A stretch of 6,427 bases of DNA. It comes from a virus. Taxonomy: Duplodnaviria > Heunggongvirae > Uroviricota > Caudoviricetes. The stretch is from the IMG/VR virus record IMGVR_UViG_2778261577_000003. The stretch is one strand, 5' to 3'. Of this stretch, positions 1 through 6,427 are shown piece by piece. The notes under the pieces were generated by a model. The model made no database searches. It was not told where the DNA came from and saw only the letters and a list, made by a program, of their open reading frames with translations. The translations under genes and the position numbers were made by a program. Position 1 is the first letter of the stretch. Each line of letters begins with the position of its first letter.

Positions 1-276
1 TTACCGACTGCGGCCTGAGTTTTTTAAGTGACGTAAAATCGTGTTGAGGCCAACGCCCATAATGCGGGCTGTTGCCCGGCATCCAACGCCATTCATGGCC
101 ATATCAATGATTTTCTGGTGCGTACCGGGTTGAGAAGCGGTGTAAGTGAACTGCAGTTGCCATGTTTTACGGCAGTGAGAGCAGAGATAGCGCTGATGTC
201 CGGCGGTGCTTTTGCCGTTACGCACCACCCCGTCAGTAGCTGAACAGGAGGGACAGCTGATAGAAACAGAAGCCAC
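1..276 (-). CDS. insA: IS1 transposase regulatory protein InsA
   Basis: The ORF-track translation [35 protein letters not shown]...LKNSGRSR is recognisable as IS1 InsA, with the N-terminal Cys-rich zinc-finger region. The stop codon is at 1..3 (TTA on the + strand). Confidence 0.93.
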
Positions 277-308
277 TGGAGCACCTCAAAAACACCATCA
301 TACACTAA

Positions 309-331
309 ATCAGTAAGTTGGCAGCATCACC
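309..331 (-). repeat. IS1 terminal inverted repeat (insA-proximal end, IRL)
   Basis: A 23-bp stretch matches the IS1 end sequence read on the minus strand, and is immediately followed by non-IS sequence. Confidence 0.75.
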
Positions 332-332
332 C

Positions 333-419
333 CTGACCACAAAAACATTCATTACTGACCGCATGATTAAAGTCTTCCTCGGTCGTGATGGTTTACCTGT
401 AAAGGCGGAGTCATGGTGA
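333..419 (+). pseudogene. 3' remnant of a prophage ORF truncated by the IS1 insertion; kilR-like by synteny with K-12 Rac, sequence identity not verified
   Basis: The reading frame is open from the IS1 junction to the TGA at 417..419, and no start codon for the original gene remains. Its stop overlaps the ydaE ATG (TGATG), as expected for a translationally coupled upstream gene. In K-12 Rac the gene upstream of ydaE is kilR. Confidence 0.35.
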
Positions 420-589
420 TGACTAAGAAAATAAAATGTGCTTACCACCTTTGCAAAAAAGACGTTGAAGAAAGCAAAGCTATTGAAAGAATGCTTCACT
501 TCATGCACGGGATTTTATCAAAAGACGAACCGAGAAAATATTGCAGTGAAGCTTGTGCCGAAAAAGACCAGATGGCACATGAACTTTAA
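419..589 (+). CDS. ydaE: Rac prophage small Cys-rich protein YdaE (56 aa)
   Basis: Translation MTKKIKCAYHLCKKDVEESKAIERMLHFMHGILSKDEPRKYCSEACAEKDQMAHEL. GGAG at 407..410 lies 8 nt upstream of the ATG at 419. An alternative in-frame ATG at 413 has no usable SD spacing. Stop is TAA at 587..589. This ORF is below the size cutoff of the supplied ORF track. Confidence 0.75.
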   Translation: MTKKIKCAYHLCKKDVEESKAIERMLHFMHGILSKDEPRKYCSEACAEKDQMAHEL

Positions 590-663
590 TTAATTGACTA
601 TTCGAAACTGAATTTATGCCAGAAATGGCAGGTATTCGCTCAACCTTAATTAAGGAGAAAAAC

Positions 664-939
664 ATGATTACCAATTATGAAGCCACTGTTGTAACTACCG
701 ATGACATTGTTCACGAGGTGAATCTGGAAGGAAAGCGCATTGGCTACGTAATTAAAACAGAAAATAAAGAAACCCCATTCACTGTGGTTGATATCGATGG
801 TCCATCAGGCAACGTAAAAACACTTGATGAAGGTGTCAAAAAAATGTGCCTGGTGCATATCGGAAAGAATCTGCCCGCAGAAAAAAAAGCCGAATTTCTG
901 GCAACTCTAATTGCAATGAAATTAAAAGGTGAAATCTGA
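664..939 (+). CDS. racC: Rac prophage protein RacC (91 aa)
   Basis: Translation from MITNYEATVVTTDDIVHEVNLEGKRIGYVIKTENK... matches RacC as I recall it. A strong SD (AGGAG at 653..657) lies 6 nt upstream of the ATG at 664. The ORF-track start at 616 is an unsupported upstream extension. Confidence 0.85.
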   Translation: MITNYEATVVTTDDIVHEVNLEGKRIGYVIKTENKETPFTVVDIDGPSGNVKTLDEGVKKMCLVHIGKNLPAEKKAEFLATLIAMKLKGEI

Positions 940-944
940 AAGAA

Positions 945-969
945 ATAGCCTGCGTATGGCGCAGGCTAT
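945..969 (+). other. Perfect 10-bp-stem / 5-nt-loop hairpin (ATAGCCTGCG-tatgg-CGCAGGCTAT) in the racC-recE intergenic region
   Basis: Direct base-pairing check: 945-969, 946-968 ... 954-960 are all Watson-Crick. It lies 6 nt after the racC stop. No U-tract follows, so it is not a canonical intrinsic terminator. Confidence 0.45.
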
Positions 970-1040
970 GAACAGTGTGTATCCGGCAAGATCATTCACT
1001 GAACAAAACGAATTTTAATCTGAGTTGAGGTTAAAAAACA

Positions 1041-1484
1041 ATGAGCACAAAACCACTCTTCCTGTTACGGAAAGCGAAAAAATCATCCGGTGAACCTGAC
1101 GTCGTCCTGTGGGCAAGCAACGATTTTGAATCGACCTGTGCCACTCTGGACTACCTGATCGTTAAGTCAGGTAAAAAACTGAGCAGCTATTTTAAAGCTG
1201 TTGCCACGAATTTTCCTGTCGTTAATGACCTGCCCGCTGAAGGTGAGATCGATTTTACCTGGAGTGAACGCTATCAACTCAGCAAAGACTCCATGACATG
1301 GGAACTAAAACCGGGAGCAGCACCAGACAACGCTCACTATCAAGGCAATACCAACGTCAACGGCGAAGACATGACTGAGATTGAGGAGAATATGCTACTC
1401 CCAATTTCTGGCCAGGAACTGCCCATTCGTTGGCTTGCTCAACACGGCAGCGAAAAACCGGTAACGCACGTTTCACGCGACTGA
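1041..1484 (+). CDS. recE: RecE N-terminal fragment (147 aa) ending at the premature TGA
   Basis: ATG at 1041 with GAGG at 1027..1030. Translation [30 protein letters not shown]... matches the RecE N-terminus. It terminates at TGA 1482..1484. Confidence 0.7.
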
Positions 1485-1721
1485 CTCCAGGCATTACACA
1501 TTGCTCGGGCTGAAGAACTACCGGCTGTTACTGCCCTGGCTGTTTCCCACAAAACCAGCCTGCTCGACCCGCTGGAAATTCGCGAACTCCACAAACTGGT
1601 TCGTGACACTGACAAAGTTTTCCCTAATCCTGGTAATTCAAACCTGGGACTGATAACTGCTTTTTTCGAAGCATACCTGAACGCTGACTACACCGATCGA
1701 GGACTGCTGACAAAAGAGTGG

Positions 1722-3641
1722 ATGAAGGGTAATCGTGTTTCACACATCACTCGCACGGCTTCCGGTGCTAATGCTGGCGGCGGAAACCTCACCGATCGCG
1801 GCGAAGGTTTCGTACACGATCTGACGTCACTGGCGCGCGACGTAGCCACTGGCGTACTGGCCCGTTCAATGGATCTGGACATCTATAACCTTCATCCGGC
1901 ACACGCTAAACGCATTGAGGAAATTATCGCTGAAAATAAACCGCCCTTTTCTGTTTTCCGCGACAAATTCATCACCATGCCTGGCGGGCTGGATTATTCC
2001 CGCGCCATCGTGGTTGCGTCCGTAAAAGAAGCACCAATTGGGATCGAGGTCATCCCCGCGCACGTCACTGAATATCTGAACAAAGTACTGACTGAAACCG
2101 ATCATGCCAACCCTGATCCGGAAATCGTGGATATTGCCTGCGGTCGCTCCTCTGCCCCGATGCCGCAGCGAGTAACAGAAGAAGGAAAACAGGATGATGA
2201 AGAAAAACCGCAACCATCTGGAACAACGGCAGTTGAACAGGGAGAGGCTGAAACAATGGAACCGGACGCAACTGAACATCATCAGGACACGCAGCCGCTG
2301 GATGCTCAGTCACAGGTAAATTCTGTTGATGCGAAATATCAGGAACTGCGGGCAGAACTCCATGAAGCCCGGAAAAACATTCCATCAAAAAATCCTGTCG
2401 ATGACGATAAATTGCTTGCTGCATCACGTGGTGAATTTGTTGACGGAATTAGCGACCCGAACGATCCGAAATGGGTAAAGGGGATCCAGACTCGCGATTG
2501 TGTGTACCAGAACCAGCCAGAAACGGAAAAAACCAGCCCAGATATGAATCAACCTGAGCCAGTAGTGCAACAGGAACCGGAAATAGCCTGCAATGCCTGC
2601 GGCCAGACTGGCGGGGATAACTGCCCTGACTGTGGTGCGGTGATGGGCGACGCAACATACCAGGAAACATTCGATGAAGAGAGTCAGGTTGAAGCTAAGG
2701 AAAATGATCCGGAGGAAATGGAAGGCGCTGAACATCCGCACAATGAGAATGCTGGCAGCGATCCGCATCGCGATTGCAGTGATGAAACTGGCGAAGTCGC
2801 AGATCCCGTAATCGTAGAAGACATAGAGCCAGGTATTTATTACGGAATTTCGAATGAGAATTACCACGCGGGTCCCGGTATCAGTAAGTCTCAGCTCGAT
2901 GACATTGCTGATACTCCGGCACTATATTTGTGGCGTAAAAATGCCCCCGTGGACACCACAAAGACAAAAACGCTCGATTTAGGAACTGCTTTCCACTGCC
3001 GGGTACTTGAACCGGAAGAATTCAGTAACCGCTTTATCGTAGCACCTGAATTTAACCGCCGTACAAACGCCGGAAAAGAAGAAGAGAAAGCGTTTCTGAT
3101 GGAATGCGCAAGCACAGGAAAAACGGTTATCACTGCGGAAGAAGGCCGGAAAATTGAACTCATGTATCAAAGCGTTATGGCTTTGCCGCTGGGGCAATGG
3201 CTTGTTGAAAGCGCCGGACACGCTGAATCATCAATTTACTGGGAAGATCCTGAAACAGGAATTTTGTGTCGGTGCCGTCCGGACAAAATTATCCCTGAAT
3301 TTCACTGGATCATGGACGTGAAAACTACGGCGGATATTCAACGATTCAAAACCGCTTATTACGACTACCGCTATCACGTTCAGGATGCATTCTACAGTGA
3401 CGGTTATGAAGCACAGTTTGGAGTGCAGCCAACTTTCGTTTTTCTGGTTGCCAGCACAACTATTGAATGCGGACGTTATCCGGTTGAAATTTTCATGATG
3501 GGCGAAGAAGCAAAACTGGCAGGTCAACAGGAATATCACCGCAATCTGCGAACCCTGTCTGACTGCCTGAATACCGATGAATGGCCAGCTATTAAGACAT
3601 TATCACTGCCCCGCTGGGCTAAGGAATATGCAAATGACTAA
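1722..3641 (+). CDS. recE: RecE C-terminal ORF (639 aa from the first internal Met after the nonsense codon); contains the acidic linker and the C-terminal 5'-3' dsDNA exonuclease domain
   Basis: Longest ORF in the window, in frame with the N-terminal fragment. Whether it is translated from the ATG at 1722 (weak SD-like AAGAG just upstream) is inference. C-terminal RecE fragments are known to retain exonuclease and recombination activity. Confidence 0.5.
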
Positions 3642-4443
3642 GCAACCACCAATCGCAAAAGCCGATCTGCAAAAAACTCAGGGAAACCGTGCACCAGCAG
3701 CAGTTAAAAATAGCGACGTGATTAGTTTTATTAACCAGCCATCAATGAAAGAGCAACTGGCAGCAGCTCTTCCACGCCATATGACGGCTGAACGTATGAT
3801 CCGTATCGCCACCACAGAAATTCGTAAAGTTCCGGCGTTAGGAAACTGTGACACTATGAGTTTTGTCAGTGCGATCGTACAGTGTTCACAGCTCGGACTT
3901 GAGCCAGGTAGCGCCCTCGGTCATGCATATTTACTGCCTTTTGGTAATAAAAACGAAAAGAGCGGTAAAAAGAACGTTCAGCTAATCATTGGCTATCGCG
4001 GCATGATTGATCTGGCTCGCCGTTCTGGTCAAATCGCCAGCCTGTCAGCCCGTGTTGTCCGTGAAGGTGACGAGTTTAGCTTCGAATTTGGCCTTGATGA
4101 AAAGTTAATACACCGCCCGGGAGAAAACGAAGATGCCCCGGTTACCCACGTCTATGCTGTCGCAAGACTGAAAGACGGAGGTACTCAGTTTGAAGTTATG
4201 ACGCGCAAACAGATTGAGCTGGTGCGCAGCCTGAGTAAAGCTGGTAATAACGGGCCGTGGGTAACTCACTGGGAAGAAATGGCAAAGAAAACGGCTATTC
4301 GTCGCCTGTTCAAATATCTGCCCGTATCAATTGAGATCCAGCGTGCAGTATCAATGGATGAAAAGGAACCACTGACAATCGATCCTGCAGATTCCACTGT
4401 ATTAACCGGGGAATACAGTGTAATCGATAATTCAGAGGAATAA
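3634..4443 (+). CDS. recT: RecT single-strand annealing protein (269 aa)
   Basis: Translation [41 protein letters not shown]...VIDNSEE matches RecT. The ATG at 3634 is preceded by AGGA at 3622..3625 and overlaps the recE stop (ATGACTAA, 8-nt overlap). The ORF-track start at 3577 lies inside recE and is rejected. Confidence 0.9.
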
Positions 4444-4451
4444 TTCAGCCT

Positions 4452-4488
4452 GGCGGTGTAATGCACCGCCAACTTGAAATATTTTTTA
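4452..4488 (+). terminator. GC-rich 7-bp-stem hairpin (GGCGGTG-taatg-CACCGCC, 4452..4470) followed 12 nt later by a T6 run (4483..4488), between recT and ralR; possible weak terminator or attenuator
   Basis: Stem pairing verified by eye. The T-tract is not directly adjacent to the stem, so terminator function is uncertain. Confidence 0.3.
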
Positions 4489-4499
4489 TGAGAAAAATT

Positions 4500-4694
4500 A
4501 TGAGATATGACAATGTTAAACCATGTCCATTTTGTGGTTGTCCATCAGTAACGGTGAAAGCCATTTCAGGATATTACCGAGCGAAGTGTAACGGATGCGA
4601 ATCCCGAACCGGTTATGGTGGAAGTGAAAAAGAAGCACTCGAAAGATGGAATAAACGAACCACTGGAAATAATAATGGAGGTGTTCATGTATAA
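4500..4694 (+). CDS. ralR: RalR / Lar restriction-alleviation protein (64 aa), also described as a type I toxin
   Basis: Translation MRYDNVKPCPFCGCPSVTVKAISGYYRAKCNGCESRTGYGGSEKEALERWNKRTTGNNNGGVHV, with a Cys-rich zinc-ribbon-like motif. Alternative in-frame starts exist at 4488 and 4461; 4500 gives the 64-aa product I recall for K-12. Confidence 0.8.
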   Translation: MRYDNVKPCPFCGCPSVTVKAISGYYRAKCNGCESRTGYGGSEKEALERWNKRTTGNNNGGVHV

Positions 4695-4896
4695 AATTAC
4701 CGCCACTATTGAAAAGGAAGGTGGCACTCCTACTAACTGGACAAGATATTCAAAATCTAAACTAACGAAATCAGAATGCGAAAAAATGCTCTCAGGTAAA
4801 AAAGAAGCAGGCGTTTCCAGAGAGCAGAAAGTAAAACTGATAAATTTTAATTGCGAGAAACTTCAGTCCTCGAGAATTGCATTGTATTCAAATTAA
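4687..4896 (+). CDS. ydaC: Rac prophage protein YdaC (69 aa)
   Basis: Translation MYKITATIEKEGGTPTNWTRYSKSKLTKSECEKMLSGKKEAGVSREQKVKLINFNCEKLQSSRIALYSN. GGAGG at 4677..4681 lies 5 nt upstream of the ATG at 4687. The start overlaps the ralR stop (ATGTATAA). Confidence 0.8.
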   Translation: MYKITATIEKEGGTPTNWTRYSKSKLTKSECEKMLSGKKEAGVSREQKVKLINFNCEKLQSSRIALYSN

Positions 4897-4907
4897 AACT
4901 TCATAGC

Positions 4908-4923
4908 TGATTATTAATAATCA
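4908..4923. promoter_or_regulatory. Perfect 16-bp palindrome TGATTATTAATAATCA upstream of xisR-intR; candidate operator or protein-binding site
   Basis: Perfect dyad symmetry read directly from the sequence. It lies in the 78-bp ydaC-xisR intergenic region, about 50 bp upstream of the xisR ATG, and overlaps AT-rich -10-like hexamers. Confidence 0.4.
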
Positions 4924-4974
4924 ACATCGGGCGTCAATTTCAGTCTAACATTGGCGCCTGCCAGAGGTGATGCG

Positions 4975-5190
4975 ATGGCACAAGTAATCTTTAATGAAGA
5001 GTGGATGGTTGAATACGGCCTGATGCTTCGCACTGGTCTGGGGGCCAGACAAATTGAAGCATACCGCCAGAACTGTTGGGTGGAGGGCTTCCACTTCAAA
5101 CGAGTATCTCCTTTAGGTAAGCCAGACAGCAAACGAGGGATTATCTGGTACAACTATCCAAAGATAAATCAGTTTATCAAAGACTCATGA
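4975..5190 (+). CDS. xisR: Rac prophage excisionase XisR (YdaQ), 71 aa
   Basis: Translation [79 protein letters not shown] at 4964..4969. It sits immediately upstream of the integrase, the typical xis-int arrangement. Confidence 0.85.
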
Positions 5191-5191
5191 T

Positions 5192-6427
5192 ATGTCTAAA
5201 TTACCAACAGGTGTCGAGATTAGAGGTAGATACATTCGCATCTGGTTCATGTTTCGAGGAAAACGATGTCGGGAAACATTAAAAGGCTGGGAGATTACAA
5301 ACAGTAATATTAAAAAGGCCGGAAATTTAAGAGCGCTGATAGTTCATGAAATAAACTCCGGTGAATTTGAGTATTTAAGACGTTTTCCCCAGTCCAGCAC
5401 TGGGGCAAAAATGGTGACAACGAGAGTCATAAAAACGTTCGGAGAGCTTTGTGATATCTGGACAAAAATTAAAGAGACAGAGTTAACAACAAACACAATG
5501 AAGAAAACGAAATCACAATTAAAAACACTCAGAATAATAATTTGTGAAAGTACCCCGATATCACATATTCGTTATAGCGATATCTTAAACTACCGGAATG
5601 AACTGCTGCATGGAGAAACGCTTTACCTGGATAATCCAAGATCCAACAAAAAAGGAAGAACCGTGCGCACAGTTGATAACTATATCGCCCTGCTCTGTTC
5701 GCTGTTGCGTTTTGCGTATCAGTCGGGATTTATATCAACCAAACCATTTGAAGGAGTAAAAAAATTACAGCGAAACAGAATAAAGCCTGATCCGTTATCT
5801 AAAACAGAATTCAATGCATTAATGGAAAGTGAAAAAGGACAGAGCCAGAACTTGTGGAAATTTGCCGTTTACTCAGGACTTCGTCACGGGGAACTGGCAG
5901 CTCTGGCGTGGGAGGATGTGGATCTCGAAAAGGGAATAGTGAATGTCAGAAGAAACCTGACGATACTTGATATGTTCGGTCCCCCAAAAACAAATGCCGG
6001 GATCCGAACAGTAACACTACTGCAGCCTGCTCTTGAAGCACTGAAGGAGCAATACAAACTGACCGGGCATCATCGCAAAAGCGAAATCACCTTTTATCAT
6101 CGGGAGTACGGCAGAACCGAAAAGCAAAAACTGCATTTTGTTTTCATGCCCAGGGTGTGTAACGGAAAACAAAAACCTTATTACTCGGTAAGCAGTTTGG
6201 GGGCAAGGTGGAATGCAGCAGTAAAACGTGCTGGTATTCGCCGCCGTAATCCGTACCATACGCGGCATACTTTTGCCTGCTGGCTGTTGACGGCAGGAGC
6301 GAACCCGGCATTTATAGCCAGCCAAATGGGGCATGAAACTGCGCAGATGGTGTATGAAATTTACGGTATGTGGATTGATGACATGAACGACGAACAGATA
6401 GCCATGTTGAATGCGCGGTTATCGTAG
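5192..6427 (+). CDS. intR: Rac prophage integrase IntR (tyrosine recombinase, 411 aa)
   Basis: Translation MSKLPTGVEIRGRYIRIWFMFRGKRCRETLKGW... carries tyrosine-recombinase signatures (LRHGE; HTRHTFA; C-terminal MGHETAQMVYEIYG with the probable catalytic Tyr). The ATG at 5192 follows the xisR TGA with a 1-nt gap. The TAG stop is the last codon of the window. Confidence 0.9.
   Translation: MSKLPTGVEIRGRYIRIWFMFRGKRCRETLKGWEITNSNIKKAGNLRALIVHEINSGEFEYLRRFPQSSTGAKMVTTRVIKTFGELCDIWTKIKETELTTNTMKKTKSQLKTLRIIICESTPISHIRYSDILNYRNELLHGETLYLDNPRSNKKGRTVRTVDNYIALLCSLLRFAYQSGFISTKPFEGVKKLQRNRIKPDPLSKTEFNALMESEKGQSQNLWKFAVYSGLRHGELAALAWEDVDLEKGIVNVRRNLTILDMFGPPKTNAGIRTVTLLQPALEALKEQYKLTGHHRKSEITFYHREYGRTEKQKLHFVFMPRVCNGKQKPYYSVSSLGARWNAAVKRAGIRRRNPYHTRHTFACWLLTAGANPAFIASQMGHETAQMVYEIYGMWIDDMNDEQIAMLNARLS

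Follow-up and report, generated by a model that had tools for sequence, protein, structure and literature searches.

A rare nonsense allele of recE in an IS1-interrupted Rac prophage of Escherichia coli, very probably a product of ordinary gene decay

The recE gene of the Rac prophage, which encodes exodeoxyribonuclease VIII, is found in the locus described here with an in-frame stop codon in its 5' part and a complete C-terminal nuclease domain downstream of it, which raises the question of how this allele should be explained and whether anything useful could still be made from the divided gene. The stretch of DNA that was analysed (6,427 nucleotides, hereafter called the window) is an exact substring, positions 29-6455, of contig NLMO01000036.1 (locus L002) from the E. 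coli assembly GCA_002229045.1, and the RecT protein encoded in it has been filed under E. coli as WP_089630188.1. From position 332 on, the window comprises the left arm of the Rac prophage with the genes in the same order as in K-12, namely the 3' end of kilR followed by ydaE, racC, recE, recT, ralR, rcbA, xisR and intR, while beyond the window the source contig runs on into ttcA and dbpA. Over positions 332-6427 only three differences from K-12 MG1655 were found (1482 G>T, 4318 T>C and 4396 T>A). The genes ydaE (419..589, + strand; Pfam YdaE) and racC (664..939, +) are intact and identical to their K-12 counterparts, and recT (3634..4443, +) is also intact and is provided with its own Shine-Dalgarno sequence, AAGGAA. 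The locus is thus like that of K-12 Rac recE (b1350) in the gene order from kilR to intR and in the 8-base overlap between recE and recT, and unlike it in having TGA at codon 148 of recE, a kilR gene cut by IS1 and two changes in recT, one of them a Ser255Thr substitution (4396 T>A, TCT to ACT) and the other synonymous (4318 T>C, TTG to CTG, both Leu). Two further elements of the region are encoded on, or oriented towards, the opposite strand: the RalA antitoxin sRNA, which is intact at 4693-4871 (-), antisense to rcbA and to the end of ralR (Rfam RF02694, 225 bits, E = 1.1e-54), and a perfect palindrome with a 10-bp stem at 945-969, between racC and recE, which scores as an intrinsic terminator on the - strand and has a T-run on that side only.

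The stop codon, TGA at 1482..1484 (+) with C as the next base, lies in frame with the recE start, ATG 1041, at a distance of 441 bases (147 codons), and corresponds to codon 148 of an 866-codon frame extending over 1041..3641. In a sequence-only reading of the window it had been taken for a single-base nonsense substitution, with the residues on both sides reading straight through, and K-12 had been stated to have Gly (GGA) at this position. These points are all confirmed by an alignment with recE of K-12 MG1655, which is annotated as an intact 866-codon CDS: 2,600 of the 2,601 bases are identical, there are no gaps, the same residues are found on both sides of the TGA, and the sole change is 1482 G>T, which converts GGA to TGA. 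Because a single substitution and no gaps separate it from the intact K-12 CDS, the recE frame is continuous apart from the TGA, and the comparison identifies the latter as one derived base change in a gene otherwise identical to that of K-12, and no chance feature of a random frame. The gene occupies the place expected of recE, between racC and recT, with the start of recT overlapping its end; a functional RecE is, however, expected from an uninterrupted frame of about 866 codons, and as the frame in the window is closed at codon 148, the gene is to be regarded as a recE nonsense allele, or pseudogene.

The TGA leaves a 5' fragment of 147 codons (1041..1484, +), which appears as a separate entry in the list of open reading frames (ORFs), and a remainder of 718 sense codons and the terminal TAA (1485..3641, +), which is identical to K-12. 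The 147-residue piece matches the Pfam profile Exonuc_VIII (PF06630, E = 3.4e-83) over positions 1-172 of 203, and positions 174-203 are matched after the stop; since the profile match continues beyond the TGA, the stop must lie inside the N-terminal Exonuc_VIII domain. The PD-(D/E)XK nuclease domain (RecE residues 605-866; 2853..3638, +) is located wholly downstream of the TGA, and is intact and identical to that of K-12. In agreement with what had been read from the letters of the window, the 639-codon ORF that opens at the first in-frame start after the TGA (1722..3641) carries this domain in its entirety, as indicated by matches to PDB 3H4R over residues 378-639 of the ORF (E = 1.4e-180) and to Pfam PF12684 (E = 2.9e-28), and its last 8 bases overlap recT, whose ATG is at 3634.

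A T found at a single position of a draft assembly could be a sequencing or assembly error concealing a true GGA codon. Damage to sequencing libraries is known to produce G>T artefacts, and the Ser255Thr change in recT, 2.9 kb away, is likewise found on one contig only, the corresponding protein having been recorded solely on the source contig. However, position 1482 is not within a homopolymer run, and the same T has been found elsewhere. The exact 147-residue product is on record for other sequences, most of which are contigs that break off here with the wild-type G, and a true TGA is present in two of these records, L006 and L003. The former is an independent assembly of the read set SRR3989766, identical to the window over 304..2737, including the exact junction between IS1 and kilR; it represents either reads of the same isolate or a very close relative, and in both cases the T was called by a second assembly procedure. 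The latter is an unrelated ENA metagenome contig, in which kilR is intact and the TGA is accompanied by two more SNPs in recE, i.e. lies on a different haplotype. Because the TGA recurs in both L006 and L003, an artefact of this kind, which the sequence-only reading had offered as an alternative, appears very unlikely. Seven of the contigs found in the same way (L004, L005 and L007-L011) end at window positions 1481-1483, with the wild-type G where this base is reached, and the clustering of their ends near 1482 probably results from the choice of the exact 147-residue product as the query, less probably from a recurrent break of the assembly graph there.

The frequency of the allele was determined with 30-mer probes designed so that the variant base falls within every possible 28-base seed and a match requires that base. 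The T-allele 30-mer is absent from all 5,426 complete E. coli genomes searched, of which 1,433 contain the G-allele 30-mer that served as a control. An 81-base probe, which cannot tell the G allele from T combined with another SNP, had no perfect matches in the same 5,426 genomes. The exact 30-mer across the TGA was found neither in species-representative genomes nor in the metagenome collection, where a 30-mer from the flanking part of the window, used as a locus finder, identified 59 loci (4 species-representative and 55 from metagenomes). Codon 148 reads GGA (Gly) in 56 of them, AGA in two, GAA in one and TGA in none. The three deviating alleles belong to the metagenome loci L047, L073 and L069, two of which encode Arg and one Glu. 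Base 1482 itself is changed also by G>A in two loci (Arg), i.e. the site is variable, and the occurrence of Arg and Glu in natural alleles indicates that Gly148 is not essential.

Among complete genomes the closest relative of the source contig over 9.1 kb, with the chromosomal flank included, is strain S171-1, with eight differences. In S171-1, codon 148 is GGA and both recE (866 codons) and kilR are intact, and since this strain has neither the stop nor the IS1 insertion, both must be derived in the lineage of the window. The synonymous recT change at 4318 distinguishes the window from S171-1 as well as from K-12. Thus, the T allele is real, derived and rare, and it is found in a recE gene whose remaining sequence is intact, with IS1 in kilR upstream.

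The relationship between the two occurrences of the allele is less simple. Over recE bases 1-727, the G>T is the sole difference between L003 (its positions 4209-4935) and the wild-type metagenome contig L071, and the recE background shared by these two contigs differs from that of the window and K-12 at recE bases 324 and 712, at both of which the L003 haplotype has T. The presence of the same G>T on two haplotypes could be accounted for either by recurrent mutation or by the transfer of a conversion tract of fewer than 388 bases. Judged from these haplotypes, it would be unexpected for a single neutral event, and it is the sole mildly unexpected point of the whole case. One might go further and suppose that the mutation occurred twice and was retained, with selection acting against full-length RecE, or against its N-terminal domain, and keeping the nuclease domain and RecT usable by means of internal initiation or UGA-C readthrough, which would make the allele a natural split or attenuated RecE; we consider such a scenario most improbable.

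UGA is also the codon for selenocysteine, and as it stands here in a weak termination context, programmed recoding, either by selenocysteine insertion or by regulated readthrough, could be envisaged; readthrough had in fact been named as an alternative in the sequence-only reading. However, the 80 bases that follow the stop show no stronger folding than shuffled sequences (z = 0.39; 123 of 200 shuffles were at least as good), no SECIS-like hairpin was found directly after the UGA by folding or as an Rfam match near the stop, and an Rfam search over the whole window returned the RalA sRNA alone. With no unusual RNA structure and no Rfam match other than RalA, a known selenocysteine or recoding signal at the TGA is excluded, and a SECIS or any other recoding element was accordingly ruled out as a candidate. 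A stop used for programmed readthrough would be expected to be conserved, but there is a stop at this position in 0 of the 1,433 complete genomes and in 0 of the 59 other loci, and the sequence downstream of it is identical to that of the Gly alleles. We therefore regard recoding as effectively refuted.

A different possibility is that the divided gene still works, either because a C-terminal nuclease is made from ATG 1722, 2256 or 2718, or because readthrough of UGA-C yields a full-length protein with Trp at residue 148 (Gly148Trp), and that in either form it would carry out useful recombination together with RecT when the operon is on. The whole nuclease domain and recT, with its own Shine-Dalgarno sequence, are identical or nearly so to those of K-12, codon 148 tolerates Arg and Glu, and the nuclease domain alone has been found to replace full-length RecE genetically, with full-length RecE reported to be better than C-terminal fragments for linear-linear recombination (PMC11611040). 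The window resembles such engineered C-terminal fragments, and the crystallised nuclease domain (PDB 3H4R), in that the whole domain is present unchanged 3' of the stop; the engineered fragments, however, are provided with engineered promoters and start codons, and the window supplies neither. Two of the internal ATGs are preceded by Shine-Dalgarno-like sequences, with calculated duplex energies of -8.2 kcal/mol for ATG 2256 (codon 406) and -5.4 kcal/mol for ATG 2718 (codon 560, GGAGGAA), compared with -6.6 kcal/mol for the start of recE itself. However, every wild-type recE has these ATGs in the same contexts, and therefore they do not represent an adaptation to the stop; nothing has evolved here for restart. 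Termination-reinitiation would call for an in-frame start with a ribosome-binding site near the stop, but the first in-frame start, ATG 1722, follows at a distance of 237 bases and is preceded by a weak Shine-Dalgarno sequence (-1.7 kcal/mol), and the nearest start in any frame past the TGA, TTG 1501, is out of frame. As regards readthrough, Poole et al. 1995 are said to have found UGA-C to be the weakest stop in E. coli. UGA followed by C behaved as a weaker terminator also in the eukaryotic reporters of PMC9841425, and because UGA-C is a weak terminator, a small amount of the Gly148Trp full-length protein is conceivable. Taken together, the evidence on any downstream product speaks mostly against it.

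The expression of the whole block is affected by an element that the sequence-only reading had overlooked. An IS1 lies 700 bases upstream of recE and parts the genes ydaE-racC-recE-recT from the Rac early promoter region. Its left end occupies window positions 1..331 (-), with insA reading leftward (276..1; the InsA ORF matches the Pfam families Zn_ribbon_InsA and HTH_Tnp_IS1) and with the terminal inverted repeat ending at 331, and similarity to the K-12 Rac prophage starts exactly at 332. The insertion cuts kilR, the gene for the Rac cell-division toxin: K-12 kilR maps to window positions 198..419 and is matched only from 332, where a 3' remnant consisting of the last 28 codons and the stop is left (332..419, +), while the first 134 bases (~45 codons) have been displaced, as far as the contig shows. 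The source contig begins 28 bases to the left of the window, still within IS1, which is compatible either with a simple insertion or with an IS1-mediated deletion at kilR. The IS1/kilR junction at 331/332 is common to the window and L006, and it has no contiguous match in any of the 5,426 complete genomes.

A simple consensus scan, which could miss a hybrid promoter formed at the end of IS1, found no sigma-70-like promoter on the + strand of window positions 1..1041. Promoter-like sites number 4 in total, compared with an expectation of 5.8 from shuffles; the best match in the region, at 2899-2928 (+; ATGACA, an 18-base spacer and TATATT, 10/12), falls within recE, where the nuclease domain begins, and is probably due to chance, since the total is below the shuffle expectation. 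Because IS1 replaces the upstream region and no promoter-like site was found, the operon is probably even more silent in this strain than usual. The recET pathway has been described as active only in sbcA mutants, and like the sbcA mutations, the window contains a rearrangement upstream of recE in Rac (PMC9504249). The sbcA alleles, however, switch expression on, whereas the IS1 of the window reads away from recE with no promoter-like site between the two by consensus scan, and the sequence offers no evidence of an sbcA-type activation of recET. With IS1 situated between the promoter region and recE, the questions of translational coupling to recT and of restart, which the earlier reading had raised, are therefore largely academic for this strain.

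The allele is, very probably, a genuine and recent loss-of-function nonsense mutation, in which G to T changed Gly148 to UGA, and it represents the ordinary decay of a normally unexpressed gene of the cryptic Rac prophage in a natural E. coli isolate. According to this explanation, IS1 would cut ydaE-racC-recE-recT off the Rac early promoter region, little or no transcript would be made, and the mutation would have no phenotype. If the block were transcribed all the same, translation would end at the TGA (1484) with the release of a 147-residue piece of the N-terminal domain, and the 2,149 bases from there to recT would be free of ribosomes. The first 140 of these bases are rich in C and poor in G (C/G ratios of 1.5-2.0), and Rho acts on RNA of this composition. 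As the RNA after the stop would be both untranslated and of Rho-type composition, we infer for this strain, beside the silence of the block, a strong polarity of the TGA on recT in case the operon is transcribed: the untranslated stretch would invite Rho-dependent termination, and recT would lose its message as well as its coupling to the translation of recE. At most, traces of product might be expected, i.e. a full-length protein made by near-cognate readthrough of UGA-C and a C-terminal nuclease fragment made by internal initiation. The polarity to be expected across 2.1 kb of untranslated RNA, the parting of the operon from its promoter region by IS1 with no replacement promoter detected, and the position of the first in-frame start all argue against a divided gene that still works, and we consider it unlikely.

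Decay as the origin of the allele is consistent with what has been found in other genomes. In an unbiased sample of 43 full-length recE loci, 38 have exactly 866 codons, three have in-frame indels and two are frameshifted, and one of these last two is a contig with about 1.75-fold coverage. Hence, recE is intact in 41 of the 43 unbiased full-length Rac-type copies (~95%), which, together with the 30-mer counts given above, upholds the earlier statement that the gene is normally intact. The exact 639-residue downstream ORF is on record for 26 contigs, and the ten of them that were examined (L012-L021 included) all have other lesions upstream, within the first 228 codons of recE. These comprise 1-base indels at codons 157, 209, 220 and 225, a 2-base deletion at codon 139, a change of Gln125 to a stop, and three deletions of the 5' end; the codon-209 lesion, a 1-base deletion, was found in 11 places. 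Such disrupted natural alleles share with the window the same 639-codon ORF and the same gene neighbourhood, and they differ from it in the nature of the lesion. Some of the indels, in assemblies that contain several split genes, may be sequencing errors. The overall picture suggested by these sequences is that recE is usually intact and is sporadically broken in many ways, and the variety of its 5' lesions in other assemblies fits a pattern of sporadic decay. Against entirely free decay it can be said that the great majority of unbiased copies are intact, which suggests that the loss of recE may not be strictly neutral.

The event described here is of a known kind, a decay allele of a well-known gene that involves no new mechanism, in an operon that IS1 disables independently. 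The recE gene in assembly GCA_002229045.1 should be labelled a pseudogene, and beyond annotation the allele has little import. The strain would be expected to lack full-length exodeoxyribonuclease VIII even if the Rac early genes were derepressed. If the allele truly arose twice, this would be a small hint of selection on the N-terminal domain of RecE, and the intactness of recE in most unbiased Rac-type loci fits the upkeep of a silent gene.
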